Positions 1 to 24,000 of a DNA stretch of 32,000 nt are shown here, piece by piece. Positions within the stretch are counted from its first letter, which is position 1. Each line of letters starts with the position of its first letter. The position numbers and the translations under genes are program-made. Source of the stretch: Candidatus Omnitrophota bacterium (GTDB lineage Bacteria > Omnitrophota > Gorgyraeia > Zapsychrales > JANLHA01); contig OY759724.1 in the NCBI GenBank assembly GCA_963662715.1, forward strand, positions 1,080,001 through 1,112,000, written 5' to 3'. Below the pieces are notes generated by a model. The model searched no databases, was not told the origin of the DNA, and was given only the letters and a program-made list of their open reading frames with translations.

Positions 1-3000
1 ACTGTAAGGATTTTTCAAGATAGGCCTCGATTAAGAAATCCTCCTTATCGGCATCGCTCCTGTGCCGGGAGAGATGGAGCTGTTCCCGGGCCAGCATTTC
101 ATAAATCTTAGCCGCACTTAAAAGCACGTCCATTCTCTGCGGATAAAGCGCCACAGCCCGGTCAATATATATCTGACTCCGGGTCCACAATTTCTCCCGT
201 GTATCAGGATCAGTTTCCTGACCTGCCAGGTTTGAGTATAAAAGGGCCAAAGCGCAATGCGCGAGCCCCAGGAGAGGATCTTTATCAACCGCGCGAAGTA
301 AATAAGATTCTCTTTGTTTCACGCTGTCGCAACTGGCAGCCCTGTTGAAGTCAAGAAGCGCCGGGAAAGATACTCCGGCCCATCGGGACCAGGGAAGGCG
401 TTCCAACTGTTCGGAAGACATAAAGATAATCTTTTGGCTCCGCTGATCCTCACCGATAACGGCAATCATAAGACTGTCATAGGATTTCTTAAAGTCACGG
501 TTCATAAGATCGAGGGTCAAAATACGATCTTCGTCCAGCCCGACAATAACGATAACATGCCATGTTTCATGATATCTATGCTCCATCGCGTTCACCGGCA
601 CAACCCTGGCTTCAAATCCGCTTTCCCGGGCTATTTCGTGATAAATAACAGAAAAGACCAGACAGTTGGCCATATTTAGTTTCATAAAGACTTCGATATC
701 TCCCTTGGCATTTCTGGTCGAAGGAACCGGGAAAACATTAAACTGCAAAATGTCAAACCAGAATCGGGCGATATCATTGAGGAACAAGGTTGCTTTTTCA
801 TCGTCCTCCATTTCTTGGACACGGGTTCTGATTCTTCGGGAAATATCATTTAAAGTTAAATTTTTAAACTGCCCGGAAAGAATCTCAGGGGAGTCCGAAG
901 ACATGAGTTCAGGAATAACGGCCCGGATATTGTCCGGCACAACGTCGGCAAATGTCCGGTAACGAAGAAGCCATAACGGCAGACGCTGATGAACGGCCTC
1001 AAGCAATTCTGTCCTGTGATATTCGTCCAGCACCGGAGAAGATCCAGGAATAAAACCAGCCGCTGCCACCGGTGCTGCCATAAGGATGCTTTTTTCAATT
1101 TCCACGGCGGCAATTTTATCCGTCAGAACGTTAAAGGCATTCAAAGGAACAACACTTTCGTTCCTGGTGGATAACCGCACATCTTTCAGTTGTTTGTGCC
1201 AGAATCCCCCGGAGTTGGCCGTCATGTTGCTTATAATGCACGTTCTGCAATCAGCGTCGGCCAGCATCCGGACAAACGTTCTCAGCAGATTTGTCCCGTA
1301 ACGGGAACCCCGCCCGTGTGCATCCCGGGCGATAACAATGTAAAATAACTTGCCCTGCTTATCGCCTGTGTGGACATAATAGGTCAGCTGCCCGACAACT
1401 TTCCCGCCCCGGGCCATGATAAGGATATCCTGCACAAAGTCATCAGCCAAAAGCCCGATACCATAATCCAGCGGCGGCTCAACATCTCCTTCGTGCAATC
1501 GGTATTCTCTGGGGAAGGAACTTTTGCCGTTATTTCCTAATGCTTGATATAGAGATAAAACATGGATATCGTCATCTCTTCTTGTTGATAAAATAAACTT
1601 CCCGTATAATCTGGCGGCGTCACTTAAAAGCCTGATGTTCGCAAATTCGGAAAACCGGTATTCCTCATCCAGCGACAATACCTTGCTGATGAATTGAGAA
1701 TCACTAAAACAGCTATTTCTGTCGACCTGAACGACGGCATCGAATGCCCGCCCTTTCACCCCTGTCCCTTCCTCTGAAGCAAGAATTCGCATTAATACCT
1801 CACCGACACCCTGACCGAATGAAGAGGCCGTCTGAGCCAAGGATTCCAGTGTCTGAAGCTTTTCAGAAAAATATAATTCTTCCCACCTCGTTTTGATCTG
1901 ATAGACAATCGGCTCCTCCTTCCCCTTCGCAGCGTCTTTTGTCACCGGGGAAGAATGATATTCTGCTGACATTCCAGCCATTGAGGACATATCCTGGTCG
2001 CCGGATATGTCCTGTTTCACCGGTGAACTGGAAGATGTCCCCCCTTCTTCCTCCGGGGAGGTCTCTTTGAGTTTTTCCTTATTGACATTCAAGAAATCCC
2101 ATAGCGGCTGATACATTTCATATATTTTCAGCAATCCGTCTATCAGCCCCAGCAGATAATAATAGTACGCTCCGTTCGCCTCACGCTGGTTCACCATCTC
2201 CAAAAGCTCTGGCTCTTCATCTATAAAGTAAAGACTTCTTTGCAAATCCTCATCTCCCTTAAAAAGGTTGTCGGATAAATAGTGCATGACATCACCGCGG
2301 AAATGTCCGTTCTGAGCTTCATGGTAGGAGAAAGATTCGATGCCCAGCAAATCAGGGCTGATCATTGCAAATAAGTCACAAAGATCCTGTCGGAAACCGC
2401 GCAACCCGCGGCGGTTTTCGCGGTCTGCCATCTGGAGAGACCGGCCGTGTTGATCCCGCCAGATAAAATAATTATCACGCTCGAGACTGTCTTGAATAAA
2501 ACTCGGGGAAATATGAGACGTCAGCGGCTGGACTGTTCCCATCGTATAGAGTAAAGGATATAAGATGTAATTATGAACACCGTTTCGAACAAGTGTCCCC
2601 GGATGCGTAAACGTCAGCGTCTTTCTCCCGGGCAGAAAGCGGATCAAAGGCTGGTTGGACATCAGGCCGACAACCTGTCCCGAATGTATATCCAGCAAAG
2701 GAGCTCCGGAATCACCCAAATACATATCAGACATGTCCGCAATCACCTGTTCTTCGTCCTTGCCCGGGATGCTCCTTGTTCCGATAACCTGACCTTCTTC
2801 AATAGCCGGTACGCCCTGGACAAAACGCTTTCCGGAAATGAGAACAACGCGCTTGCCGATAGAGCTTTTTTGGATTTTTAAAACTCCCAGTCTTTCATGA
2901 TTTAAAGAAGACTTCGAGAGACGGATAACCGCCACATCGTTGAGAGTATTGATCCGATTAGCTTCCGGCTCCCAGACTCTCTCTACACTGTCCCTGTTGG

Positions 3001-6000
3001 TCATAATATGACCGTAAACCTCCCGGCCGGAAGGCAAAACCACCTTAACGGTTTTCTTGGAGACAACCCCGTTATTTCTATCCGTCCACTCTGTATACAA
3101 GCCATGTTTGCTGGTAAACGCATAATAATTATACGGGTCCTCATCAACGACAAAACCGGAAAGCCCGTAGTTAACATTGGCCAATGAACCTAAACGGATA
3201 ACAGCTGATTGACCTTCCCTAAGAGTCTTTTCTCCTTCTTTACTCCATTCATCCTGCTTTAATAAAGACGGGGCGCGATCCCTGTTAAAAGCACTTAACA
3301 CCGCCGAAGAAACACGCGTACCAAAATCCGCGTCCTGGTGGGACGATTGAGGCCCGTCCTGCAAATGAATCTTTCCTGAAACCTCCTGGTCGACCGGGAG
3401 GAAAAACGCTGTCTTTCCAGCATGCCGCTCCCGGGAGTGAAATTCACTCACCGGAGAGCTGGCGCCCTTCAATAATCCCGCAACATCGTGTGACGATATG
3501 CCAACGCCCGTAACCCCGGCCTTCATCAATTCAAACGCCATACGGGAAAGCGCCCGCATGAGAATGAGCCGGTCATGCTGCCAGTCCTCCGGGATATTTG
3601 CCGTAGCCCGTTTAGCCGCCTCCAGTGTCTGACGGGCCTCGGGCAGTCCGTACATAAGTTCGATCTTGGCCGCACGGATCCAAAAGAGCGCTACTGTCCT
3701 GAGACGGTAACTGCTGACATAACCGTCTCTTACCGGATCGACCATTTCTTTGGCCTTCGCAAGGTGTTCTTTGCCGTCCTTATGTCTTCCTTCCGCAAAA
3801 ACGATCTCGGCAAAGTCAAGATGCGCTTCGTCAAACTCGAAAGCCCTCGGAGGAGCTATATCCAAGAAGGCCATAGCCTGCTCAAAAGTCTGCGCGGCCG
3901 ATTCAAGACCATGCTTCTTCTCAAACCGGTAGATCTCAAGAAGCCCCTTGAAGATATCTTCCTTATGCAAAGCCGTATCGTGATACAAATAGCTCAACTG
4001 ACGTTTGGCCTTCTCAAGAAAGGCGCGGCTTCTCTCTGTGTCCTTTGAGACGGTTATCTCCGCCATTTCAACCAGCGTCCTGATCTGAAGGAAATAATTG
4101 TAGCCCTGCTTCAAAACCTCTTCCGCCTGCTCATAATGTCCGCTCAGTGTTTCCATAAGCGCAAAAAGCCTTGACGACTCGGCGCGCTGCTGGGCTTCCA
4201 GAAGATCGATCATATCGTGCCTCTCCGCGGCGCACTGGGCAAGCGTCATGGTTTGAAAAGCCGTGGGCATCCCTAAATGCCATTTGACAAGGGCGACTTC
4301 GGCCAGGGCGCACGGCCGCTCCAGCATAGATGTTTTGGCAATAGCCATCGCCGCTTCTTCGGCCTCCTGCAATAAGCATTCCGCATTCGGCATATTGCCG
4401 TCAAAGTCATACCGTTGCTTGGCGATCCTGGCTAATGTCCTGGCAAGATGATAAAGATTCCGGTTTTGCACTTTTCTGGAAAACGTGTTTAATATCCGTA
4501 TGGTCTTGATAGCCTCTTCATACTCGCCTAGTTCTGTCAGGAATTCAGCAATTTCGGCAATGGCTTCCGGAGAGTCCGCCTCCCGGGCTTCTTCTTCTAT
4601 ACGGGAAAATGTTTTAGACAAGGCCAGCCCGGCTTCAGGCGAAATCACGACCAGAGCAGCCGGCTCTGTATCAGCGGCGGGTTTTGCAATAAGCAAACGG
4701 TAATTCCTGTTGCCCGTTCTTTCTACATCCGGGTTATAAGGATCAAACTTGTAGGATATCCAACTCTGCGATCCGTCAGCAAAAACGACAAGAAACTTAT
4801 AATCTATTTGATGCTCCTGAATAACAACGCTTAACTGCCAGAGGCCATCTTGTTCAACCATCTTAAATTCTTCGTTATCTTCATCGTTCAACCATCGGTT
4901 AAAACTCCCGCCCAGGAACACAGATTGGATTTCCTCGTGTCGTCCCCCTTGCGGTTTAAAAACAAAGGTCACTTGTGTCCCGCCGTCTTCCAGGATTTCA
5001 CAAGCAGGATAGGCGCCTTCTTCGGGCAGGCTCTCGGAAACCGGGAATATGAAATCTCCGTTATTGGCCCACATCCTGGCTTCTGCGAACAAAGGATCAT
5101 CCAATCTCATTCCGTGAGGAACGGAAAAGAGGGTCATCCCGATCTGATCATCGTTAAAGAACACTGTTCTGGCCTTTATCACAGCTGTCAATTCGTAGAA
5201 CATGTAGCAGAAACTTGAAAAAACACTTCCCCGGACACCGGCCTTTTGCGCCTTGGCCGGGATCGCCCGCCAGTCGGACGGATGATTAACCGGACCGACC
5301 CAGAAATAAAAATCAAGGTCATGGACAGGAGTCTTGTCATAAAGATGAGCCAGATATACACCCGAGTTCAAAACAGAGGCGTTGTCGCCACGGCGTACAA
5401 CCGGCGGCTCCTCACGGTCATCGGCATCCCAGGTCTGGAAATACATAAGATTGTTATTCTTATATCTTAAAAGCGTACCGGCACGAAGTACGACCTCCCG
5501 GCTTCTGCCCCAGGCCCGGGCATAACCCTCTTCATAGGCTTCCAGCATGCGATCAATGGCAGAATCTTTCAGTTCTTCCCCGCCGAATTTCAATTCCGCC
5601 CAGAGAGCAATGCGCAAAGACCTAAATTGCTCTAAACGATCATACAATGAAGCCTGATAACTGTGGGAGAGATCCGTGAACCGGACAGAGGGCTTTCCGT
5701 CGTCGTAAGAGATTTCAAAAATTTCGGGATAGATATTGCCCGTGGAATAGTCTATATGTTCCCGGCAAAGATCCTTAAGACGCAATCCTTTTCTGTGTTC
5801 TTTGCCCAGGGCGAACCCTAAGGCTTCCAGCTCCTTATTTTGTATTACCGGAGAACTCGTATTCTTTTTCTTTGTGTCCTCCCGGGAACGCAGTTGGGAG
5901 ATTTTTGTCCGGGGCATGGGGGTATCTTCTGTTGCGGTATTCCGAAGCTGCCGCCGCTGTCTTGCGCGCTGAGACAATGCTTTTATAAAATTTACCGTTC

Positions 6001-9000
6001 TGACCATAAAAAGACATATATCGCCGAGGGAAGACAAAGTCTCCGCGGCATACTTTCTCAGTTCCGGCCACATATCTTCTGCTGTGATTTTTTCAGAAAA
6101 ACAATCTTTAGTCAGCCGGGAGGTTTTTATGAGCATACGCAATATAGACATCTCATTCCGGATGACAATTTGCCTCAGGCTGGCGATATCCACTGGATCA
6201 ATCAAGCCGTTTGACTCAAAAAGTTCTGTCCCCATCCATTCTCCGTGCTTTCTTATGTGCCGTCTGAAACGGATTTTATTGGACGCTGTTAATTTAATTA
6301 AAACATCCGGTTTCACGGACAATTGGGCCAATGCGGCCGGCGCCTCCGTGCCGTCAATTATGACGACAGGACGCGTCAGGCGGGCATAGACCATAAGCCG
6401 GGCCAATTCCCGAACCATCGCCTGTTCTGAGGTTTCTCCTTCACGGCGCACGGCCTTCCTCTTTATCGCATCTATATTTAAAACCTTTATTTCCTGCGGC
6501 GTGTAGGATGCCAGGCCGATAGTCTTGATCATCTCGGCAAACATTGTTTTTCCGGTGCTGACACGGCCGGTAATCACAACAAGCGCTCTGTCTTTTATTT
6601 GGGACAAAACCTTATTTACGGAAAAATATCCTTCGAATACATTCCCGTTTTCAATCCTTTCTGCTTGTTTATGAACAGGAGAGCTGACCGGGTTGTTCTC
6701 GGAAGGACTCCTGGCCCTGCCGTCATTCCGGAGAGTAAAGAACCGGCTTATTCTGTTGCTCATTTTTTCTCGAGAGGCGGTGTCCCTCTCACCTAAAGCC
6801 GGCTTTCCGGTTTTCCTCTGCTGTTTTTGATCTTTTTCCCGTATAGGAGAACTCTGGCTTAAAGAGGCAGGGCCCTTTTCCTGCTCATTCGCCCAAATAT
6901 GGAATTGGGAATACTCAAAATCCGGGATTTCTTGAAGAACCCGTTTCTTATCTTTTAACGTTCCTTTAATAATATCGATAACAGTTCTGCTCTTTTTCTT
7001 TTTATCGGCCCCAACCCGAGTAGGAATCCGTATCCGCATCAACAAATCATAATCATGGATCAACTTGGTCCCCTGGACACAAAGGCTTTCCAATCTCTGA
7101 GATTTTATTTCCGCAAAATGATTCAATAACGGCTGGAACAAATCTTCTATAGGATCCAACTGCTCTATTTCAATTCCCGGATGCTTCCGCCATAAAGCCA
7201 GCAGAAGGGCCTCTAATTGGTTTAAATCTTTTCCTGTCTTGACCGCTATGTTTAATGGTAAATCTTTTGTTCCTTTTTCCGTACGCCAAACTCGGGAAGG
7301 AGCCTTGATATCAGGGATAGACATTAAAATCTTCCGGATGTCCTGCGGGGTCGTCTGATGCCCTGGCGATTCCCGGACGTCCAAGGCTATTCTATATACC
7401 TGCTTTGAAAAACCGGAAGTCTTAACGGATATTCTCTTAACAACGAATTTTAAAATTTGCATGGCCCTCAGCACGGCCAATAAACGTCCCGGCCTTGCCG
7501 CAGAGAATGATATGTTGATGGAATAATGACCTCTCCGGCTTTTCTCTTCATTGACAGTTAAATCCAAATTACGATTTTTCAATCTAGCGGCCGATTGCCT
7601 TAATTCCTTCAGGAGAATCTGACGGGTTCCGATCAATTGAACAAAACGGTCAAAGTCATCCGTGCATTCCTGCAACGTTCCCCTTGACAATGAATATGAT
7701 ATCCGCAGTAATTCTTCCTGCCGCAGCTGCTGTTCTGCGGAAGACAACGCCTCCACGCTGCCAGCCTGCAGCAAATCAACCAGCTGTTCCTGCCCCAAAG
7801 AGAAAGCATAACGCTTCATATCATCCCGGTCTATCACCCCTTGCCAGCAGGCTAAATATAATTCAAACTTATCTTTTAAATGTAGCCTTTCGGCCAAAGC
7901 GGACGAAAACCGGGAGAAACCGTAAGCATGGGTAATCCCGGCTTGTGCCAACAACTGCCGTTCTCCTTCTCTGCTGAGCTGCGCACGGGCTTTTCTTTCT
8001 AATCCCCAGACAGAGACGTAAAGTCTGGCGCGCCGGGTTTGCATCTTACATTCAGGAACATCAGGCTTCGCGGCTGCCGTGCCTCCCGAAGGCAACAAAA
8101 GCACATCCCCGTCTTTAATCTCATCCAGCATTTCCATCTTTTTAACGACTTTCAATGACGGGATAATCTCATCAACCTTAATCCGGACCTTAAATGTTCC
8201 GCAATAGATGCCCTTGTAAAGGCGGTCTATCTTTCGATGAGCGGCCACATCAAGAGCAATAGCCCCTTCCGGCAGACTGAGCGGGACATAATCATATTGA
8301 TCTTTACCCACCTGCTTAGCGACCAATACCGTAACGGACTTTTGGGCTCCGTAAAGATGCTGTTTGCGGATATTCGTCAACGTAGTGATGTAATCATATT
8401 CAAAATGCTGGGTGAGCCGGATATGGTTGAAAAGATCCAGGGCCTGTTTTGCCAAAGCCGGCTCATCTTTCCGCATGGAATAAACCGAATGTTTAGCGGT
8501 CCCCTGCCGGTATATTTTATAATTCTCTTCGCTGATAATAATAATTTCGATATACCGGCGCTCTTCTTCTTTTTCATATTCAGACTCCCCGAACAGAATC
8601 TGATAAGCTTCATACTTACCGCCCGTTTGCCTGGCCCGGTAAAATTTCTTTAACGGTCTGGAGACATGCTGCCATTCCGGCATGACAAACGGCAAATTCA
8701 GCAACACCGTCAACACGATGTGAATATCCTCCTCCCCTTTTACAACAAACATGCCTCCCCAAATATCACAGATCGGGTCCGTACGGCCGTCGGCCTGGTA
8801 CCGGTCTTCTTTACGGCTGTAGGAATAGGTGCTCTTAAAACGAACAGCATTTTGAGTTTTGGCCATAAAATCAGCCATATATTCCGGGATTCTCCCCGCA
8901 GGGATAAACTGTCCCGCAACTTTTTCTATCTGGCCGTGAAGGTAACCGTTAATATCCGACCATAAATCCCTGAGAGCTGTTTCCGCCGCCCTTCTGCTTG

Positions 9001-12000
9001 TAAACCGGTATTTCTGAAGCATCCGTTGATTAACAGTATTGTATCTCTCTTTGTCTGCCGTCTGTAAGACCTTGGAACGTATAACAGCAGCAATATGCGT
9101 TTGTCCGAAATAATTCGCCAGGAAAGCGTCCACATGACAGGCTTTCAGGCTCAAATACTGCAGATGCTCTTGCTGTTCTTGAGATAAAGTTTTTAACCCA
9201 TGATAATATTTCAATATTTCAATAATACGAGCCCACCGTAAAAACAATACTGGAGAATATTTATGGAGATCATCCTGTTTCAGGAAAAACTTAATATATT
9301 CAGGAACATATTCTTTGTCGGTGATGACCCCTCTCGGCATGGGAGGATCGTAAGGAACATTCATCCATTTGCGATAATGTGTCAACCATTCCAAAACAAG
9401 CTCTCCTTCTTCCCGGCCAAAAGTTTTTCTTATCGCCTCCTTATGTTTCCTCGTTAAAGAATCAGAATCAGCTAATAATATCCATGCCGCCCCGACCACC
9501 AACGGGGGAACAGTCCAGCCCCGGAGCCGGTAGACCATGCCTTTAGAGACAGATACATCGGCAGAAGACAGAAGATGTTCCTGCTGAAAATCCACGGCCA
9601 ATGAATGCCCTTGCTGACTCATCCAGTCATATCCTTTTTCCCTCACCGGGCTGTTCACACAGGTATTCTCTTCCCGACTATTTTCATTTCCCGCAAGGGT
9701 CTTAACCGGTGAGCTGCTGTTTGTATCGGCCGGACCCACGTTCAGCCGCTTTAGGGCCGCTTCAATATGCTTTGGCTGAAAGACCTTGACAGCCGGGTAT
9801 ATTTTCTGAAGAAGCCCGCCGACCCTGGCCCAGTCGGAAAGATCCCGTAAATATGACCGCATGTCGGACAATCCGGCCGGCTCCAATCTTCTTAAAGCAC
9901 ATAACCTCAGGGGCCGGTCAATATTGGCCTCAGCAAGAACCTGTAGTATATCTTCACGGCTGCGGGCCAACCTCAATCCCTGCTCCTGCAAAGCACCAAA
10001 AATCCAGGAAACCATCAGATCGCCCTCGGCAATACGAATATCCTTAACGATACACCCGGTTTTCTGCCAAAGACGGATCAGCTGAATAGCCAACTCTTCT
10101 GATATAAAATCATAAAGAGGTTCCAGCGCCGTAATGGGAAGGCCTCCTTCTAACAGGCCCCAGAAACATGCGGCATCATTCTCCACGGGATCTGCTTCTC
10201 CTCTGGAGTGGACGAAAGCCTGGCTCAGATCAAACAGGCTTTTGCCAAGGTATAAACCTTCATAACCCTCAAGATATTCGGAAAGATAAACAGGATACGT
10301 GCGTGTCTGTTTATTGAAAGTTCCCCGGACATGAGCGAAAGACAAAGGTGCCGGAAAAATATCCGTGTGCGTGTTGACCGCCTGCAGGTTCTTAAATTCT
10401 GACGGCACGCTCAACACGGCATTCTTTTCTTCAAGCCAATGGTTGTCAACGGTCATGATCCAACGGACCATCTGATTTTTCATATATACTTCCACGCTGA
10501 ATATTCCGGCTGATCCCGGCTTCTCCGGTTCACTGCTCTTGCCGGATAACAGCGGGCGGACATTTATTAGTTTAATATCTGACAAATAATATGATCCCGG
10601 GAGAACCTCAATGGCCCGCTCAAGCAGGTCCGTTTGAGTGAAGGCATTTTGTATCAGTTCCTTATATAACGCCAGCGTATGGGCCATAAAATATTCTATC
10701 TGCTCCAGACTCATGATTTGATCAAAAGGACGGTTATAATAGGCAAACGCCTCCAAGGCTCTCGTATCAATCCGAACGTTCACCGGAGAACTAGACACAA
10801 GCATATTTTGGAGATGTCTTTTTGCAATAATGACTTCAACAACCAGTCCTTTATCGTCGCCCATTCTTTGCGTACGGTCAAAAGGAGTCACAACAGCGCC
10901 GATGCGGTAGGCATGCGTTAACATGATGGCGTTCCCTTCTCCCCGTCCGCCAAAAAACGGATAGGGGCAGGCATTCTTTTCGTCTGTCTTGAAAGCTGCG
11001 TTAAAGGAAGCCCCGTTGGAAATAAGCCGCAGGAGGATATCCCGGCCTTGTTCTTCCACATAGAAATCCACTCTCAAAGGCCGGTCATATGTTCCCGATT
11101 CATAAACCCGCTGTAAATATAAATCCATCATATTCTCAACCGTATGAGCCAGTACCTGCTCCAAAGAAGCGACAAAGGGACGATATAGTACCAAATCAAC
11201 TTTATCCCGGGAACTGCCGATCAAAGCAAATAATGTGTCGAGCAGCGGAACGGTCACATTTTGTTTAAACAGTTCAAGAGAAATCCTGTAGACCAGCTCC
11301 TGTTTCGCGTCGGAGTTCTTGCTGCGGACGATAGGCAGCAATTCCTGCAAATCTTCGTATGACAGTTCCAGACGACATAGTCTTGCTGCAGACGAACCTT
11401 CCCGGTTGACCGGGCTGCTGGAAGGATTATTTTTCTTAAGCGTTTCCCGTTTATTGATATTAAGAGACGAGCCGTTCTCTGATGACGCATTTACGCTCAG
11501 GGACTCTTTTGTCCGCCGGAACAACTCATCGACCGCACCCGGGGCAGACGGCTCAACGCCTTTAAGAAAACGGATGGACCGGACAAGATAGGCCGCCCAT
11601 TTCTCTGATAATTCTTCCGGATCATGATCGGTAAACCGGACCTTGGTACATTTAAAGAAATCATCCTCAAATACTCTTTCAGCAAGATCCTGATCAACGA
11701 CCCGGACAATAAATTCGTCTAACACTTTTTCATAATCACGCAGTTTTCGTCCTGCCAGATATTCAGATTCGAGCAGTGACCGAGTGGAAGATAACGACGT
11801 AAAATAGATCAAGGCATTAACGAGCAATTTAGCGCCGTTGACCACATCATTGCGCACTATTGCAAAAGGATACGGCGGGACCCTCCGGGGCAGGGAAGGA
11901 TGTCCTACTCCGGGCTTGAGCTTTTGCGGGTCATAAACATTACGGCGGAGAAATTCCGCTAACCGTTCTTCCTGTTCTTTTTCCGTGAAGGACGCCTGCT

Positions 12001-15000
12001 TGGTAATGAGGATACGGGAAAGATCCGCACCTTTAGAAAAATCACGCTGCACAACAGGGTGCTCCTCCACGGTTCTCCTCGGGACAAGGATCTGAACGCC
12101 GAGCTTGGCATGGAAATCGTCATTGGCCGACTCAAACAGGTAATAATGAGATCCAAAAATTTCCCTGGAGACCAGGTCCGAAAGAACGGTCATCGTTCCT
12201 CCGATGCCCTGATAGCCTTTGGAATCAGGATAGAACAATCCGGCATTGCGGTAACGGACCTGCACCCAGAGGGCCGGGGCTATGGCAAATACATTATGAC
12301 CAACGCTCCATTGCCCCGAACGATGTTCTGCCTCGGCAGACGCAAGACTTTCCCGGCGGATTTCCGGATATGTTTTCATAAGGTCTTCATCGCTGCAAGA
12401 ACTCTCATCCAGGAATGTCACGAGACCCCGCTCTGTTTCGGTCGTGAAGGTCTCTTTTTCGTCCGTTACGATAATCCGGTCGGCTCTTCCCACAAACTGA
12501 TCCTGCTCCGCGTCATGGCTGATATCAAAAACATCAATAACAAACGCTCTATAAGGCTGAAAGCCTAATTTTTCCGGGCCAAATTTGGGCAAAGCCGCCG
12601 TCGTCCCTGTCCGAAGCCGGAACACCAATTTATGTTCCTCATCCACCCGGTACACAGCGTGGCCCCGTGTTAAGAATCCCTCTCCGTCAAATCTTTTCCT
12701 GCCCTGCCCCTTAATAGGATCTTCCGCGTTTCCAGTGACAGGCGAACTGGCGGGGTTCCGGATGAAATACACATCCGTTTCCAAGCGCCGAACATCCATG
12801 CGGGCTTGGCCGATCTTCGCCCCAGGCCGATAGGCTCCCGCCGATTTAAAGGTTTCCATAATAATGTCAACGTTATTTAAACCTCCCGAATGCAGCCAGC
12901 GGACAGGCTGCCAGACAAGGGCCTGTCCGCCCGGGTTCAAGACAAGAGGTAAGGCCCGGGCAAAACGTCTCAGGGTCCGGCCGTTCGCATCTCCGTCCCA
13001 GAGGGAATGACCGTGTTTCAGTCCATCGGATTCCGACACGTTCAGATCCAATTGCTGCATGTTCCACAAGACAAAATCAAACCTCCGATCCTGGAATCTT
13101 AAACGGCCGTCAGGAGTCATAATATTGTCTCCGATGACAGCCTCAAGCCCGAAACCGTTGTTATTCGCCACCGTGCGCACATTCGCCACTTCCATAGGGT
13201 TCAGGCCTATCGCATAAATGATCTCGCGTGTTTTGCGGGAAACAGCCCAGGCATCAATTCCGCTGCCCGGACCGACCACCAGCACCCGGCTCCACGGCTG
13301 AATGGGCAGCTGTTCAATCAAAGCGTGATAATACCGCATATCTGTTTCAAAAACCACTCTGGCCCCCGGAGTGTAAACAGTCGGTGCGACCGGAAGGAAT
13401 GTTCTATGGATAAACCGTTTCTCCGGACGGGACATCCACCGCCGGACGTACGTCCTTTCGAATTCCTGCCAGTTCTTCTTAAAGAGAAGGTCAGGCATTT
13501 CTTCGGACACCCGCCAACGGATATTTCCGGGGGTGGTTTCCATCAAAGCAAAGACATACGGGGAGCAGATAAATTTGGATGCATACCCCTGGCTGACGTC
13601 CATCGCTCCCTGGTAATTTTCCTCGGCATATTCTTCAATAATCTTCTGGTCATAACCGCGTCCGGCGATAGACTGATGCCAGGCAAAAAGTCCTTCAAGA
13701 TCATCAAGCCGCGGCACCGGGATATTGAAATGACTCAAGTTGAAATAATTCCATGATTTTAAAACAGACGCGAAATCTTGCCCTGTCCGGGATATTTGTC
13801 CTTTGACTTTCCGGGTCATAGCAGGAAAGACGGCAATCAGCTGATCATTGTTGTTAAAAATCAGATCAAAATCTGTTAAGTCCTCTCCGTTGACATGGCC
13901 CAAGTGATGCTGCAGGACATCTAACCCGACCGGCGCCCGGCTCGTATCTTTCCTTCGCGAGATACGGATTCTCTGGATTCTCGCTCCGAATTTTCGTTCG
14001 CTCCACATAATCTTATAAGCCCTAGCTCCCGGGGACGCGTTCAGGCCAAGGACGTTCATTATCTCTGCTGTAAGGGTTGTTTTGGCGTCCGCCTGGATGA
14101 CGGGGGAGCTGTTCCCGCTTAGAGAAGTGCGCGCGCTTGAACGCGGAGCTGTCTTTTCTATGATTTCCTCAACAAGGCTTTCCCAGATATAGATACGATC
14201 TTTATCGAGGACTCTGTTTAATCTTCTTTCATTGAGCCATTCCACAAACATAGAATCAAACACATGTTCCTCCAAATCCGTACGGCCCCGGTCGCCGGAC
14301 TGAAAAGCATCCATGACCCGGCTAATCTGCGCTATAGACCGTGTAACCGCCCGGGCACCATACCGGTGCATGATCCAGTCCAGCGTAGAACAATATCGGC
14401 CATGCACATCCTCATAACGCTCCACCCGAATCCTGTCCCGATAATTTTCGTCAAACTGCCCGAAGGTCGGATCAATCCCTAACACCGGAATAGTCTGATA
14501 ATAAAAGACAATCACATAATGTGTTTTGAATTTGTCCCGAAAAATCATCCTTTCCAGGACAAAAGACGTCTCTTGCCTGTCGCCGAACCGCACTTCTAAT
14601 ATTTGTGCAAGAACCTGCCCCAGGATATAACCGAATTCCCGGCAGAGATGATCCCCTTTGCTCCGCCATTCCGGCAGGCCTTGTTTTATAACCTGCCAGA
14701 TCTCTCTCTCATATAATCCGAGATAACCGTGTATCCCTGTCTTTAGACGGCTGAAATGCTCATTATCGACCAGATCCAAATCATAGGTGACCGGGCTGGA
14801 GGAGACAATTTCTTTCCCGGGAGATTGTCTCTCTGAAACTTTTTGGACCGGACTGGATGCTTCAGGATCATCATTCCTGTTTTCAAAAGATTCCATTTCT
14901 TTCAAAATACGCATATCATATTCATGAACCTTATGCATAAGCAGTTGATGAAGCTGCAAAAATTTCATGTCCATCCCCGGGAGAGGAATCACAGGCAAGA

Positions 15001-18000
15001 ACATCAAAGCCCCTAAAATCTGGCTGAATCGGGCCGGGCCTTTAATCCTGATCCGCTCGAAAAGATCATTTATTATTTCTTCTTCCGGGACGTCCGGGGT
15101 AAAAACAAAACAGGCGGCAAGATACAAACTTATCGCCTGGCTCATTCCGGGGGTTATCTCCAAGGAACTCGTCAGCCGCGACCTTAGGTTTTCCTGTATC
15201 CCGCTTGCCTTGATCTGTCCTCCGTTTATCAAAATCTTTTCGTAAGCCAATAACTGAATAAAAGTATAAAGGCTTCTTAAGAAAGCTTCCGATCTGGCCC
15301 GGCCCTCCGGCGTAGATGTCTCAACGGTCCAGTCGACCTGGAAGATCAAAGCATCAATGATAAAATCGATATTGTACTGCGGATGAATCATGTAAAGCTC
15401 TATTAAGGCTTTAAGGTCGCCGCGCCTTAACTGCTCCCCGATAATCCTTGGGGCGATCAGGGGTTCCAGTTCAGAAAAGGCTTCGCCGATATCCCATCTC
15501 AACCGATTCAGCTTGGGGATCGCCTTTGATTCAAGCATTAAAGCTTCTATGATGTCTCTGATCCTGTTGATGCCTTTTTTAACATCCTCCATGATGTCAG
15601 ACAGCTTTTCGTTTCCTAGTATCTCCTGAACAGCCTGCTTGGAAATCCCATTGCTCAGCATCTCTCCCGGTAAGTTCCGTTCGGATCTATAGAGCTCAAA
15701 CAGACCGTCCAGGGCATTATAAACAGACCAGAATATAACAAAGGCGTTCACATGTTCAGGCAATCTCTCTTCCGGCCATTGATACTGGCTGATAACCGAT
15801 GTGCGGAGGAACGCTTCCAAAAGCATCGACCGGTCTCCGGCATATTCCATGGCTTGTTGCGGACGCACCCGATACAAGGAATAATCAATGACCCAGCCTC
15901 TTTGGGAGGCTTTGGATCCGGTAATCGTTGCCCCGGCATAAGGATCGACAAAACGGTAAGGATTAAATTTCAACTTCTCCGCTTTCCCTTGCCCGAGGGC
16001 CCATGTCGTCAGTTCACAGCACGAGTTGATTGTATTCATAAGTTTTCTCGCCGTATCAACGGCCGGGTGAATAAGAATCAGGGTCGCGTTTAAGTTCATG
16101 CCGGCTCCGAGGATGATGCGCGCGGCATTCTTATTGGTCGCGGCCCCTCCCCGCATTTTCTTATCCATATCTTTTAGCACGTCATCGTCATAAGATTCAT
16201 GCCCCATCAGCACCATGCCCATACGTAAATCTCTATAAAGAATTTCCGCCAACTCTGGATGACGGTCAATGTTATCCGACCGCATTAATGCGAAAGTAAC
16301 GATTCCGGATTCCTGGAACTCCCCGTTCTCCCGGGCGAGAGCGGCCAGTTCCCTGTTCCTTTCCGGCCGAAGGTTGAAGTTATCGTCATTAAAGAATATG
16401 GCGCCTAAACGCGGAGCAAAATTCCTTATGATATTCAGCAACACCCTCATACCGTCTTCCGCCGGCAAGAGTGAAATCTTCGGTTTAATGCCCAAGACCC
16501 CCAAGGCTTGCGTCTCTTCCGCCGTAAGGTTCCGATAAGCATCCGGAAGCTGGTTGGTCGATGAACAGAAGTCACAGCCCATCGGGCATTCTGTCTCAAA
16601 ATAAACCCTCACGGTTCTGACGAATTTGTCATGGCCGGTGGCTTCCAAATGCTCCAATCCGTAATAATTTTCAATATACTGCCAATATTCTTCGTAAGGG
16701 ACATTGATCGAATCATGCATCAAGGTGACAAGTCGTAAATCATCCAGCTGATAGTAAATGACGCCCCTGGCTTCCTGCACGGCCCCGGATTCACTCCGGG
16801 TAAAGACGCCTCTTATCCGGGCAAAATCACGAATACGATTTTCTGACCGCCGGAGAGCCAGCGCCATTTCAAGCATAGGATACTCGCCCCATCCCGAGAT
16901 GACGGCGTCAACGGGCGCCTCCCGGATCAGCTTCTGACGGTTGAATTGCGCGCCCTGTCCTCCGGCGATAATAACCGTATCAGGCGACAGATTCTTAATC
17001 TTGAGCAACTGTTTAAGATCTTGCGGCAACGTTTGATCAAGCATACTGAACCCGATCATATCGTAATGGTTCTCCGTGACTATCTGCTCCAGATCATGGC
17101 GGCCTTGCAGTATTCTTAAACTGGCATCATAGACGTCGACTTCAAAACCAAAAACTTTGAGGAATGAAGCGATACGATACAGTCCGAAAGGCGGCGCCAG
17201 GAACTGTCCGGGCCGTAACTGCGGATTCGTCGGCCCGACCAAAAGAATTCTCGGCAACCCGGACAACGGAAGGCTATCATTAAAACATAAGCCTTTACCG
17301 GACGCCAGCCGGTCAAGGCGCCCGATTATAACCGCTTTACTTATGTTCAGGAAAGATAGCCCGCCCAGGACAGGATGCGCCACCAGACGTTTAATATGGT
17401 CTTTCGTCGGATCACCAAGACTTCGCGCCTCTTCTGTAAGCTGTAAGACATGTCTCTCTTCTTTCTGATCAACAAACGGCTGGTCAACGCTGAGCAGTTT
17501 AATATAGAGATACCGGGCGGGAGTTGACAAATAATTAAAACGGCTTTTCAGAGTTATTTCATCCAGCGCTCTAAACAGCTGCGCTTTTTCGTCACGGGTC
17601 ATACGCGCAAGATAAAGGTCAATCTCATCCCGCTGCAGCACGGATCCGGTGCCGGACCTTAATGTCCCCGTGGCATCTAAAGATATCGCGCCCGATCTGA
17701 CTCTGTCATTGACACGCTTTACGAATTCCGGAGATTCTGCCGGGGAAACGGCAATGTCCTGATACAGGGCTTTTACCTCCTCGGTCAAAGCGGCCCGGGA
17801 AGAATTCTTGTTTAAATATGCCGGTTCGAAAACAATGAGCCTCAATTCAAATATCTCGATGGCCGCGGCAACCTCTTTCCCTAAGAACCTGGAGCCGGCG
17901 GCAGGTCTGCGGGCAAAATACAGCCCTTCCGACGTCAACAATAAATTATAGCTCATATCATGCGCATGAGCTTCCTGAATAGCCTGAGACAGCCATCGTG

Positions 18001-21000
18001 ACGTTTCGGAAGCGTGTCCCTGTATTTTCAGATTCTCCGACGGCCATGCCGGGACATGAGAGATCCTCAGGCCTGTTCCCTGGTATAGCGTATTCTGACG
18101 TTGCCCTGCCATCTGGACGGCCTTTTTCTGCCTGCCATAATACCCCTGAAAATGCAGGTGTCTCTGGGAGTTCCCGGCATTATCAGCATTAAAATAAATA
18201 TTGAAATGCGGAAGTCGCTGCTGGATTTCGAGAATATCTTCCATATCCTCCCTCGTTATTTCCTGGAAGCGATGGATCAGTCTGCCGGCATGATCCAGAG
18301 GCACAATAACAATATGGAACTGTTCATAAGCGATCCTGTTGGTCCATATTTCCCACTGCCGTCCGCTGTTCAGCCGCATCGTAACAAGTTTTTGTCTGTC
18401 CCTGACGGCAGAATCACATAACGGGCACTTTACCTGCCGGGCCTGTTTTTCCCGTTCCGTTTTCTTCGTTTCTTTCGTTCGCTCCTCGTGATAACGCAAA
18501 GCAAACCTCAGCCCTCCGGCCTTAAGTTTTCTCTGCTGGAATTCCGAAGGCATAACTTCGATCAAGCCCCTGGATCTTCTCTCCTCCCACGCCCGGAGAA
18601 GGGCTCTCTCTTCTTCATTCATGATCAGATTCGCATAATAATACCCGAGGACATACGCTATCCGGTTCATCACATTCTTAAGGAATCTCCCGGCAGTCCT
18701 TTTACGAACCGGGCTGCTGACCGACGGCGCCCGGGCCGTCCTGCTGCTGTCCATCATCACCGGGCTGTTGGCAACAGAATCCCGGGTCCTGGCTTCCGGC
18801 TGAATCATGTCCGTGGAGTAGGCAGAAGCCCCCGCCGAGCCGGCAGAACTTTCTTCCTGGCTCTGTGGCTGTGCCGGTGATTTATATCCCCGATCAGCAA
18901 AATATTGCACAAAAACGGCCTCCCCGGCTTTGGCAAGAACATCAAGGAATGTGACAAAGCGGTCAGTTTGATCTTCATAAGTGAGGAGCTGATCAATAGG
19001 AAAGATATGAATATAAAGCACAAATTTCCCGCGTTCTTTTCTTAGCCGCATCCAGGAATCTTCTGTCCTGCTAAAATCGGATGTCACCTTCACAGAAAAG
19101 CTCTCAACCGGAAGCTTTGCGATACGGACTGTTATCTGTTCATATAATTTTTGCAACGCGTCTGTCTGAGACGGGGATAAAGGTCCGTTATCCCTGGCTT
19201 TCCAGACAGGCTGGCCGCCTGTAAAATCCAGTTCCCCGTATAAAGGATTGTCCCGGTATTTCTGTTCATAGATTCTTTTGGTCTCGTTAAAAGGCTTGAA
19301 CATAAACAAACGGTCGTCTTCCTTCGCTGTTTCCGGGGCCTCTTTGCTGACCTCATTTTTGATAATTTCAAAATGGAGGGCACCAAAACCAACAACGATC
19401 GGCACTTGAGGCTCCTGCGCCTGGACCGCCAAAACAGACCGCGCCATGGCGACACTTCTTGCGTCATTGATTTCGTCAAGCCTCGACAAAGTTATTCCGT
19501 TGATGTTATACATAAGTTTCCGGGCCGCTTCTCTTAACTCAGGGGAATCCAGTCCGACAATCTCGATATTCCGGTGGGACATATCATTGTCCATATCGAA
19601 ATAGATGTAATTCACCGGCAGATAGAATAAGAGAAACACTTCTTTTGCTGTTGCCGCAGGTCTCCGGACATTCTTTCTCTTCATAATACGTAAAATGGAA
19701 TTGTACCGCTCTTTGGCCAGTATGGTGGACCTGACCCATTCTGTAGTATCAAATTCATTCCCGTAAATCACTTTCGGATATTGTGCGGATAAGGCCTTAA
19801 CCTGCTCAACAATCTGTTTGTAACGGTTAATGACAGGACGGTAAGAAGCCAAAAGCCTGTTAACTCTTGCCTGGTATACTTCATCAGAAACATTGGCATT
19901 CAGCAGCTGCTTCATCATAATCTGGGTGAACCATAAATCAGTATGTTCATAGCCCCTTAAATAAACCGTTCCGATCCGGGCGTCAGGGTTAACATCCATT
20001 GCCTCTCTTAACTCAACAACAGCCTTTTCAACAGACCTGAGATATTGAACTTCATCATGATGTTGCTTGATGCTTTGAACAAAGGAAGCACAGCCCGACA
20101 AGAAAACGAGCTGCGGAAGGAGGATAAAAAAGATTAAAATCATCCGGAATATTCCGGGGGCCCGGGCGCCGTTGATACGGAACATTTTGGCCATACGCTT
20201 AATTTTTCGGACGAACCAGGTTTCTCTTTTAGAGGCCTCCGGCGGCCGGATAGGAGATCGGCGATCTGGGCGTACGGAATGAACTCCGGCCCGCCAGTGA
20301 CCGGCAGACTCATCCTGCCATATCCCCGCATCATCTGGATGGGTCTGCGGAGCAGAAGGATTGACCGGGGAGCTTGCCTGATTGGAGTCATCAGCTTTGT
20401 GGTTACGTTGTATTTCGGCCAAGGCCTTTTCCAGGGTCTCTTCAATAGCCGGCGGGTCATAAGAAATCACCCTCTTGAGTTTTTCAACCGAGAAAACCCT
20501 TCCTGTTCCGACGTCAGGCTGTGTCATGCCTTGTTCTTCCCGGGACAGAAGGTTGGCCTTCCGGCCTAGACGTGATTCCAGGAAAGAAAGCAGTTCCTGC
20601 AAAGAATATTTCGTTCCGGTCCCGACATTAAAGACCTCGGACAAATCCAGGTTTTGCTCCTGGGCCCAGAGCACAAGCCGGACCATGGCCTCCGCGGCAT
20701 CATCAACATAAATAAAATTGTAAGTGTCCGACGGGTTGGAAACAGTGATCGGCAGGCCCCGCAAGAGATTGACCGTAAACTTGCTGAAAACATCCAAAGG
20801 ATAAACTTCATGATGATGTGAGAAAAATTTGGGAATCGTGTTCGATAACCGGGCAATAATATACGGGCCGCCATATCTCTGGACAATCTTTTCCCCCCAG
20901 TATTTGCTTAAATCATAGGAACTCTCCGCCGGCTCAGCAGCCACCGTCTCGTTGATATAAACGCCGGGCTGTCTTCCATAAACACGCACGCTTGAGACAT

Positions 21001-24000
21001 AAAGAACGAGCGGCTGCTTTTGCCGTTCTTCCCGATATCCTTCCAGAGCACGAAGCAGGCTGTAAAGACCCAGCATGTTGACCTCCAAACTATCGAGTTT
21101 CTTTTCACGGGTTTTAACAATATCGGAAAGCCAGATAATGGCGTCCGGCTCCGAATCAAAGACCGCGTCCCTCACCTGCTGATCGTTTCTGACGTCAAGT
21201 TTGACAACTTTCGTTTTGAGGCCTTCTTGCGTCCCGTTAAAACCGGAGATTCCCGATAAACCTGTGACGATGATCTCCCGGACCTGCGGCATCAGTTCGC
21301 TGATTTTTCTATACAACGATCTTCCGATAAAACCGGTTCCCCCGATCAGCAGGACTTTTTTGACCGGGTGAACTTTTGACGGTGCCGGTTCCGTTATTTT
21401 TTCACGCTCTCCTAATAACGGGGCCTCGGTCAAAAATTCCAAAAATTTTCTCGCAAGCTGCGTTTGAACCTCATAACCGCAGCGGGCATAAAGTTCAATC
21501 ATCCTGCCCGTTCCCGCCGCCAAAGCCTGGCGGCCTTTCAGCGTCCGCATCGCAGCCGGGCTCATCATCTGACCTATTCTCTGAGGAAACTGCGCTGTTG
21601 ACACGACGTCTTTCATTGAAGCCTGCAGGGACTCTTTATCCTCCTGATACCATGTCCATAAGAATTCCATGAACTCATTGATACGAAACGCCCAGGGGGA
21701 ACAAACCTGGCAATGCCGATCAATTCGCGGATAAGTTTTAAGGAAACTCTGCCAGAGATTTCTTCCTATGACATCAGGATCAACGCCTTGCACAAAATTA
21801 TATAAACTTCCCCCGCCGGAGTACCCGCGATGATCGCACGGGTACATTCGCCCGTTGGGGGCAATAACGCCCGTAAACAGCATGGCCCAGCATTTCTTGG
21901 CTTGGCTCACAAACGGCTTTTGTTCGTGACGGCCGATCCTTTCCATATCATCTGTTCCATGCATGGCAACAACGGAATACTTGTGGTTCGAAAAGCGTTG
22001 AGAAACATCAAACAAGGCTTCCAGGTCACGGAAATGAGAGTTGAGAACTTCCGCGGTCATTAACCCGGTTATATCGAATTTAAACCGCAAAGAATCAACT
22101 CCCAGCTCCTGCATATCGGAGGCCATAGTCAGGATTTCATGAAAATTCTTCCCGGAAATGACAAAGCCCACGTTGATCATGGTGGAGAGCTGCTGCAACC
22201 TTTTCAGGCTGACGAGATCCGCCATGTCGGCCACTATGCCCTGATAATCTAATTTCTGGTTTCTTTTAAGCTTGCGGAAGGTTTCTTCGGAAGCGGCATC
22301 AAGGCTGACATGGACATAATCCAATAAATGCAACACGTCCTTGATTCTGTGCAGTCCCAGCCCGTTCGAGAAAACACCTTTTCTTATAGAAGACGGCAGG
22401 TTCCGAATAAGGGCAGGGATCCTGCGGCCGAAGCTGCCCTCCAGGGGCTCGCCGAACAATCCTGATAATTTGACCAATTTGAGTGCACCGTGATAATGCA
22501 ACTCCTGCACCACGGAAGTATAAATATCAAAAAGCCGGTCACTGATAGAATGATATTCTTTCTGGGTCTGTCTGATTTCCGGTAAAGACAATATCCGCTT
22601 TCCGATACAATGTTCACACCCCATCGAGCAATAAGGGCTCTGGATCTCTAACTCCGTCAATACGTGAGCATATTCGCCTCTTTCCAACGCTTCGAATACC
22701 TGAATGATGGACTCATGCTGTTCAAGCAGGAAATCAAACTCATAGGTAAAAGGAATGCTTCCTTTGCTGAGGTAATCGTAAAGCCGCCGTTCAAATTTCT
22801 TTCTGGCCGCTATTCTTCCTAAATGATTTGACTCGTCTATCGGGGATGAGGCCGGCCCCCTATGATCCTCTATAGATTCTTGATCCTCTGCGTGCTGCCT
22901 TACGGAACTGCTTACGGCCTGAGCGAGCTTCCGGACATCTCTGTCGGATGAAAAATCCCGGGCAAATCTTCTGAATCTCTCTATGCTGCCCTCGGCATGG
23001 ACAAGCTGCCCGGGATAATCAAAAATATTCATCGGAGCATAAGGATGCCTGAAGACAAACCGATAATTCATTTCTTCCAAGAACCGCAAACGCAGTATTT
23101 CTATAATGGCTCGTATCTCTTCCAGGCTGAGTTTATTCCGGACGGTCTCGTTATAGGACCGAACCATGACTTCCAGTTTGTCCCGCCCGTACGGAAGCGG
23201 AGCGGCGATATCATCCCGTCCCAATATTAGATTATTAAACTCGAGCACGCGGATATCCGTCACAGCCATGGCGAAATCTATTATCGCAATAACATGTCCA
23301 TAAACGTTGAAGATGAAATTCCCGACATGCAGGTCATTATGAACCGGAGATTCCGGGAGTCCTTCGGCAGAATAATTGCGGCTGAAAAGCTCGGTCTGCT
23401 TCATGATGAAAGGCTTATACGTAAAGAATAGTTTCTGTCCTGCTTTACTGACCGGGGAATCCCTCTCTATGCCGTGGAAAGCTCTTAAAGATTTCTCCAC
23501 TTCACTAAAAATCTGTTTTCGTGATTTATAGCGCCGTACGCCTTCCGGCTTAAATCCGAACAATACATTATTTATGTGAGCGGCGCTTCTGGCCGTGGCC
23601 TGAAAATCTTCTAAACGGGCATCCTCAAGACGGATCTTTTTCCCGTCTCCCATAAATTCTTCCAGGATATAACGCGCCCCGTCACATTCAACGATATAGT
23701 TCAAGGCCGTATCCTCTGCCGTTCCGGAGACCCGGTAAAGTTCCGGCACGGGCAGCCCGGCACGGTGCAATTCTTTCATAACAGAAACAATAAACCGGGC
23801 CCTTGTCACAGGATCCTGTATCCTTCTTAAGACCTTTTCTTCCTCTTGCGTGATAATCAATACCGGAGGATGCGTGCTTCCGATGCCTCCTGTCAACACC
23901 TTGCTCCCGGCTTTCCCGATTCCGTAATACTTCCTCACAAGCGCTACGGCTTGATCCTGCCCCTGTTCCACCGGCGAACTCGTTATCGGGCTTGGGCCGG

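Follow-up and report, generated by a model that had tools for sequence, protein, structure and literature searches.

Are the giant proteins of the Omnitrophota, which reach up to ~147,000 residues, single molecules, or are they cut into many proteins? This question is raised by a 32,000-nucleotide stretch of the genome of Candidatus Omnitrophota bacterium (GenBank assembly GCA_963662715.1, contig OY759724.1, positions 1,080,001 to 1,112,000; hereafter the window), which is filled by one open reading frame (ORF) encoding unrelated enzymes and a trypsin-like serine protease. The phylum accounts for roughly 5,800 proteins of at least 10,000 residues. Its giant ORFs have been described repeatedly, and one class of them goes by the name "multi-enzyme metabolic cluster" (bioRxiv 10.1101/2023.11.21.568195; bioRxiv 10.64898/2026.06.07.730766; PMC10066038). 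Autocatalytic cleavage of such giants was proposed by West-Roberts et al. on the basis of peptidase domains of the C39 and S8 types found in them, and the same 2023 preprint described the cleavage points as unknown, which blocked further analysis (bioRxiv 10.1101/2023.11.21.568195). Here, we describe a short peptide, SSP[V/I], that recurs between the modules of the ORF, and counterparts of different sequence that occupy the homologous positions in related ORFs. We tentatively favor the reading that SSP[V/I] marks proteolytic processing sites and that the protease embedded in the ORF is a candidate for the processing enzyme.

A giant reading frame and its junction motif

The ORF occupies minus-strand frame 2 (window positions 2-31999) and is open at both ends, with at least 10,666 codons. 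Six-frame translation gives no stop codon in this frame vs 314-678 in each of the other five. All features located below by window coordinates lie on the minus strand, and residues (aa) are numbered along the ORF. The G+C content is ~48% throughout, and neither Rfam families nor tandem repeats were found in the 32-kb window. The product consists of ~22 unrelated modules joined by hydrophilic linkers and is tiled by at least 14 different enzyme families in Pfam and NCBIfam, none of which dominates. Recognized modules comprise HATPase_c, the N- and C-terminal domains of a formyltransferase, an NAD-dependent epimerase, DUF4922, a HemK-like methyltransferase, an APH-type phosphotransferase and radical-SAM domains, of which there are three, one accompanied by a B12-binding domain. 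Weaker matches point to RelA/SpoT-like, P-loop NTPase-like, TPR, GNAT and transglutaminase-core modules, and about half of the modules have no match in either database. This composition resembles that of the published multi-enzyme giants of the Omnitrophota, with more than 10,000 residues tiled by HATPase_c, GNAT, radical-SAM, methyltransferase, kinase and peptidase domains, a small number of transmembrane segments and little conservation of sequence. All homologues that carry a name come from Omnitrophota metagenome-assembled genomes (MAGs).

The linkers carry a recurring tetrapeptide, as in the native stretches DNTSSPVGEPR and GPASSPIDESN. SSPV occurs 20 times vs 0.129 expected from composition (Poisson p ~6e-37), and SSPI 3 times vs 0.12 expected. 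From the N-terminal side, SSPV lies at aa 594 (30209-30220), 955 (29126-29137), 1737 (26780-26791), 1997 (26000-26011), 2674, upstream of the APH module (23969-23980), 3876 (20363-20374), 4428 (18707-18718), 5715 (14846-14857), 5734 (14789-14800), 5964 (14099-14110), 6418 (12737-12748), 6861 (11408-11419), 7070 (10781-10792), 7429 (9704-9715), 8439 (6674-6685), 8715 (5846-5857), 9514 and 9991, the N- and C-terminal boundaries of the protease module (3449-3460 and 2018-2029), 10016 (1943-1954) and 10320 (1031-1042). SSPI is found at aa 1372 (27875-27886), at aa 3051, downstream of the APH module (22838-22849), and at aa 8383 (6842-6853). None of these 23 sites falls inside a Pfam-matched stretch. 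Flanking residues are not conserved, and the 15 residues on either side are far more polar (polar fraction 0.674 vs 0.551 +- 0.018) and more hydrophilic (mean hydropathy -1.0 vs -0.35 +- 0.11) than random positions.

Codon usage at the sites differs at all four positions, including AGY vs TCN for Ser, and all 11 copies of the DNA consensus AGYTCNCCGGT in the window stand in the frame of the giant ORF. Selection therefore acts on the peptide rather than on DNA or RNA, and a nucleic acid-level signal, which also has no Rfam match to speak for it, was rejected. Some codon bias remains, as the first Ser is encoded by AGY at 17 of the 23 sites (background 33%, p = 7e-5) and Pro by CCG at 18 of them (p = 0.009), which could reflect descent from the codons of Asn, Gly or Ser in near-cognate versions such as NSPV and GSPV, or a translational effect. 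Spread of the motif by duplication of a module together with its linker was likewise rejected: no two SSPV-delimited modules are similar by BLASTP and tandem repeats are absent.

Canonical sites have six near-cognates ([NGAP]SP[VI]) in their vicinity, among them GSPV at aa 1389, 17 residues after SSPI 1372 (27824-27835), NSPV at aa 4411, 17 residues before SSPV 4428 (18758-18769), and NSPV at aa 7449, 20 residues after SSPV 7429 (9644-9655). Junction motifs are often paired at a distance of 17-26 residues, as at aa 1372/1389, 4411/4428, 5715/5734, 7429/7449 and 9991/10016, the last pair being 25 residues apart (1943-2029); such pairs also occur for RSExR, the counterpart motif described below, in the related loci L010 and L008. 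The excess of tandem pairs over the 5-60-residue range is not significant (p = 0.08). Paired sites, if both were cut, would leave short spacer peptides.

Two segments of the window protein, the only strongly hydrophobic ones, follow such junctions. One is a lipoprotein-type signal peptide (MAKMFRINGARAPGIFRMILIFFILLPQLVFLSG followed by Cys, ending in LVFLSG and C; 20087-20194; hydropathy 2.4) with a canonical L-S-G-C lipobox, whose first Met lies 56 residues and whose hydrophobic core 74 residues after SSPV 3876 (core at aa 3954). The other is a signal peptide-like hydrophobic segment that runs into Cys-Gly-Gly-Cys (...FIFCGGC; 26609-26698; hydropathy 2.3), with its first Met 27 residues and its hydrophobic core 37 residues after SSPV 1737 (core at aa 1778). 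Internal translation starts after the junctions would be one way to produce separate modules from such a frame. In many modules, including that of the protease, the first in-frame Met is 80-148 residues past the junction, and these modules could thus not be made by internal initiation; Shine-Dalgarno-like sequences are also rare, and this explanation was rejected.

Lineage-specific junction peptides in related reading frames

The APH module (aa 2678-3051; 22847-23968) is the only one with clear orthologues in relatives and served as the reference for junction positions. A search with aa 2675-5737 returned five proteins that match this module only, with 32-47% identity. Four of them, from Candidatus Omnitrophota/Omnitrophica, are partial ORFs that take up their contigs entirely; the fifth (P0005) has an identical counterpart encoded on a 317-kb contig. 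Scans with the APH-module alignment yielded ten further loci, and the three named ones are Omnitrophota MAGs. These relatives were picked up by means of their APH module.

In the alignment, the module is flanked by one peptide ~10-15 residues before its conserved start and by another shortly past its end. At these equal positions stand SSPV and SSPI in the window, SSPI and SSPS in P0002, RSEMR in P0004, P0005, L008 and L010, RSEVR in L004, and GTRL in L011. Each peptide recurs along its own ORF. P0002/L003 has 7 copies of SSP[A/I/S], and SSP itself occurs 8 times (expected 0.49). RSExR is found 6 times in P0004/L005 and 6 times in P0005/L001 (RSEMR 3 in each; expected 0.001), 8 times in L004, including 6 RSEVR (expected 0.01), 3 times in L006, 6 times in L008 and 16 times in L010, whereas L011 uses GTRL, with 10 copies (expected 0.19). 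P0001 has 6 copies of [LI][GA]SN (expected 0.23) and 3 of SNxG[VI]FSL. No recurring junction peptide was detected in L007 and P0003. Codons vary in RSEMR as they do in SSP[V/I]. Because different peptides occupy the same APH-flanking positions, the junction signal is conserved in position and replaced in sequence between lineages. It is real and lineage-specific, and its replacement is concerted across the junctions of an ORF. The Omnitrophota literature that was searched holds no description of a junction motif, and text searches of the two giant-ORF preprints turned up no junction or linker motif.

Signal peptides following junctions are seen in relatives as well. P0002 carries a lipoprotein-type signal peptide with an LPGC lipobox at aa 1029, 8 residues after SSPI, and L010 a hydrophobic helix 85 residues after RSEMR.

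For aa 5735-10666, the only homologue recovered was P0008, which is uninformative as to SSPV. In this high-G+C membrane protein of 5348 aa, a unit with 29-31% identity to the window methyltransferase module (aa 5952-6421; 12737-14146), which starts at SSPV 5964, occurs three times, and each of these units begins with AAAPLLEALELSDP[ED]RIPGA. The Pfam order APH ... DUF4922 - B12-binding - radical SAM is common to the window (14789-18718 and 22847-23968) and to the 3208-aa RSEMR-type ORF of L008, with BLASTP-level similarity in the APH module only, an arrangement that may point to a core pathway conserved within such ORFs. Directly upstream of the 4414-aa ORF of L004, positions 840-7063 of that locus encode a TonB-dependent receptor, TonB, a periplasmic binding protein, FecCD, an ABC ATPase and a corrinoid adenosyltransferase. 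This cobalamin-uptake set thus neighbors a member of the gene family to which the ORFs of the window and L008, with their B12-binding radical-SAM modules, belong.

The embedded protease module

The protease module comprises aa 9514-9994 when both bounding SSPV motifs are included (2018-3460; from motif and Pfam positions). Within it, aa 9614-9779 (2663-3160) match the PA-clan serine peptidase family Trypsin_2 (PF13365) with E = 1.4e-10 and 42.5 bits vs a curated cut-off of 27.6, over profile positions 2-144 of 144. The catalytic residues follow in order: His9632 in TSKHG (3104-3106), Asp9688 in NDVAVIRL (2936-2938) and Ser9764 in GDSGAP (2708-2710), the last being the sole G[DN]SG[GAS] in the giant ORF. 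Both the complete triad and the two in-frame SSPV boundaries had been pointed out in the earlier note, and each was found at exactly these codons. As judged from profile coverage and catalytic residues, this is a PA-clan serine peptidase domain, divergent yet complete, with predicted peptidase activity.

Its affinities within the clan are distant. A search of the Protein Data Bank (PDB) with the module gave insignificant matches, the best being peptidase Do (E = 0.22) and DegQ (E = 0.65), and the 188-residue core alone had no PDB match at E <= 10. In the weak local alignments, NDVAVIRL stands opposite DIALLQ of DegQ, and GDSGAPLL opposite GNSGGALL, with the catalytic Ser aligned to the GNSGG motif. 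A single-sequence AlphaFold model reached a mean pLDDT of 32.8, too low to show the double beta-barrel fold expected of the clan. Like HtrA, DegP, DegQ and DegS (family S1C), the protease lies in the Trypsin_2 neighborhood and has similar motifs around Asp and Ser. Unlike them, it has no PDZ domain matched by Pfam in aa 9515-10019, shows no significant pairwise similarity to any characterized or solved HtrA, and has 56 residues between His and Asp vs ~30 in HtrA. Membership of the HtrA family was rejected on the first two of these grounds.

The non-protease C-terminal half of the module (aa 9800-9990; 2030-2602) likewise contains no PDZ domain. Its aa 9862-9966 (2104-2416) weakly resemble the insect allergen repeat (PF06757), the match being a repetitive 1713-aa protein with E = 2e-13 summed over 8 repeats. 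This likeness is probably a resemblance between helical domains that has no functional weight.

Few homologues of the module were found. A word-indexed search of 5.8 billion proteins gave none, genome and metagenome contig collections contained no related locus, and an exhaustive HMMER search of 1.84 billion representative proteins gave just two matches, P0006 and P0007. P0006 is an insect allergen-repeat protein that matches only the non-protease C-terminal half. P0007, a multi-module fragment, is the sole homologue of the protease part: its aa 610-701 align with aa 9567-9652 of the window protein (3047-3301) at 39% identity by BLASTP (44% over the best HMMER stretch) across the first ~90 aligned residues, through the His motif, which is kept as TSRHG. 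It is made up of two LOG/lysine-decarboxylase-like modules, the protease remnant and a radical-SAM module, and its own junctions are serine-rich (VSSS). Its sequence suggests that modules decay and get replaced inside these ORFs.

Two further stretches had been claimed in the earlier note as papain/transglutaminase-like Cys-His-Asp cores that might assist the protease, a claim that was not confirmed. The one at aa 10421-10490 (530-739) weakly resembles a transglutaminase core, below threshold (PF01841 Transglut_core; E = 0.0016, 19.1 bits, cut-off 23), and the other, at aa 5783-5847 (14459-14653), has no Pfam or NCBIfam match.

Possible processing at the junctions and competing readings

In the reading that we favor, SSP[V/I] would be the form that a junction signal, different in each lineage, takes in this one, the precursor would be cut there into separate proteins, and the embedded Trypsin_2 protease would be the obvious candidate within the ORF to do the cutting. 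Short of being probable, this combination of site and enzyme is the account to which we give the most credit. Its two parts differ in strength. That the motif is a cleavage site is what we infer from the comparative pattern, and proteolytic release of the modules is a reasonable reading of three observations, namely a motif that shifts in sequence at a fixed position, signal peptides that follow junctions, and missing start codons. That the embedded protease does the cutting, and at which bond, is speculative. The scissile bond may follow the aliphatic Val or Ile, in a manner similar to HtrA-type enzymes, which prefer Val or Ile at P1, as when DegS cuts RseA after Val148; such a preference would fit cutting after SSP[V/I].

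Viral polyproteins provide a parallel. They are processed by embedded chymotrypsin-fold proteases, and their cleavage sites, which co-evolve with the protease, show concerted lineage-specific change at fixed positions. As this is how the junction peptides of the Omnitrophota ORFs behave in their linkers, the pattern speaks for cutting. Polyproteins processed by picornavirus 3C, potyvirus NIa, flavivirus NS3 or coronavirus 3CL also share with the window a single ORF with many unrelated modules, an embedded PA-clan protease, and a short conserved motif in flexible inter-module linkers that differs between lineages. In contrast, the window belongs to a cellular genome, its ORF is 3-10 times longer and encodes metabolic enzymes, and its processing is putative. 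The viral proteases have no sequence relationship to that of the window, for which Trypsin_2 is the only family match.

Several observations weigh against this reading. No protease domain is detectable in the complete RSExR-type ORFs of P0005 (2872 aa), L004 (4414 aa) and L008 (3208 aa), nor in the partial ORFs of L006, L010, L011 and L007, and consequently cutting of the junctions, if it takes place, would not generally call for a protease in the same ORF. Nor do the flanks of the related loci, as far as they are sequenced (up to 10 kb), hold a recurring or conserved protease gene. The comparative data do not tie this protease to SSPV, and in P0007, the alignment gives way beyond the His motif to a serine-rich junction and then to the radical-SAM module, leaving a decayed remnant from which Asp and Ser are absent. 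Moreover, Asp9758 lies six residues before the catalytic Ser and, if it corresponds to position 189 of trypsin, would favor cleavage after Arg or Lys over SSPV. In L007, which is closely related and has a similar G+C content, no junction motif recurs, which indicates that such ORFs can exist without a strict one. The exported segment of P0002 is closed by a second membrane helix, a topology that works without cleavage. Finally, every version of the motif contains Ser or Thr and all these ORFs have a kinase-like module, and the motif could therefore be a modification site.

The last three of these points, the motif-free L007 included, would also suit a protein that remains uncut, as one membrane-tethered multi-enzyme scaffold in which SSP[V/I], RSExR and GTRL would be non-proteolytic linear motifs, serving as sites of Ser/Thr phosphorylation or glycosylation, as docking sites for partners or chaperones, or as hinges, while the protease acts on external substrates. 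The kinase-fold APH module present in all related ORFs is in line with this possibility, with the proviso that the set was found via APH, and in published accounts the products are regarded as giant membrane proteins that have many transmembrane helices. On the other hand, a passive linker needs no invariant tetrapeptide swapped wholesale between lineages. In an uncut window protein, the ~2,150 residues from one hydrophobic segment to the other would be located beyond the membrane, which would place the APH kinase, radical-SAM and NAD-epimerase modules outside the cytoplasm and away from the ATP, S-adenosylmethionine and NAD on which they depend. A canonical lipobox such as LSGC within a chain further implies that signal peptidase II cuts there, if nowhere else. 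We consider an uncut scaffold a serious contender, albeit an unlikely one.

Alternatively, the SSP[V/I] sites could be processed by another enzyme, be it a protease whose gene lies elsewhere in the genome, a Cys-His-Asp module or, for the lipobox sites, signal peptidase II. The Trypsin_2 protease would then be a cargo with substrates of its own, for example among prey or envelope proteins. Other substrates are indeed allowed for the embedded peptidases of Omnitrophota giants by West-Roberts et al. (bioRxiv 10.1101/2023.11.21.568195). Junction motifs in complete relatives that lack a detectable protease domain are what this account predicts, the protease module is not conserved, with a sole homologue that is truncated, and Asp9758 hints at a preference for basic residues. 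Against it, the sequenced flanks of the related loci hold no candidate for a protease outside the ORF, the Cys-His-Asp modules have sub-threshold family support at best, and motif and protease alike are particular to this lineage, as expected of a matched pair. We regard processing by another enzyme as rather improbable. Least credible by far, and very improbable in our view, is an artefact of mis-assembly or untranslated DNA that would make protease and motif biologically meaningless, as 32 kb free of stops in one frame vs 314-678 stops in the others is beyond chance, at least 14 enzyme families match in that very frame, ORFs of the same architecture with orthologous modules occur in many independent Omnitrophota assemblies, and peptides of a 39,678-aa Omnitrophota ORF have been reported (PMC10066038).

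Cleavage of a large bacterial protein by a protease that it contains has a precedent in the MARTX toxins of Vibrio, multi-effector proteins of several thousand residues in which an embedded protease cuts the linkers and releases the modules (PMC6315884, PMC2900308). The MARTX protease is a C80 cysteine protease that is activated by host inositol hexakisphosphate and cuts after Leu, and MARTX proteins are secreted toxins with RTX repeats; neither RTX repeats nor a C80 domain had a Pfam match across the 10,666 residues of the window ORF. Given this precedent and the 2023 proposal for Omnitrophota giants, the assertion of the earlier note that a polyprotein strategy would be novel for a cellular genome was too strong. 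Its proposal of a self-processing polyprotein fares better in part: an intact protease, an over-represented motif selected at the peptide level and the comparative pattern support it, whereas the self-processing itself lacks a comparative link between this protease and SSPV. What is new here is the PA-clan type of the embedded peptidase, a Trypsin_2 domain unlike the C39 and S8 domains of the published giants, and, more importantly, a defined peptide at the junctions whose versions differ between lineages while holding homologous positions, for which the searched papers on those giants have no counterpart.

A broader proposition can be formulated, according to which the multi-enzyme giants of the Omnitrophota are true cellular polyproteins whose lineage-own sites (SSP[V/I], RSExR, GTRL and others) co-evolve with a dedicated protease, here Trypsin_2. 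We hold this generalization to be doubtful at present. Whatever their function, SSP[V/I] and its counterparts provide exact and testable candidate sites for metaproteome searches, for splitting giant ORFs prior to structure prediction and for the design of protease substrates. If cleavage at these sites is true, polyprotein expression of metabolic pathways in bacteria would be established, and mutually independent pairs of protease and site would become available, with a possible use in synthetic biology. For the organism itself, a polyprotein would mean that an operon's worth of enzymes, together with some exported lipoproteins, is obtained from a single translated precursor, which would amount to a virus-like mode of expression in a bacterium that is free-living or episymbiotic.

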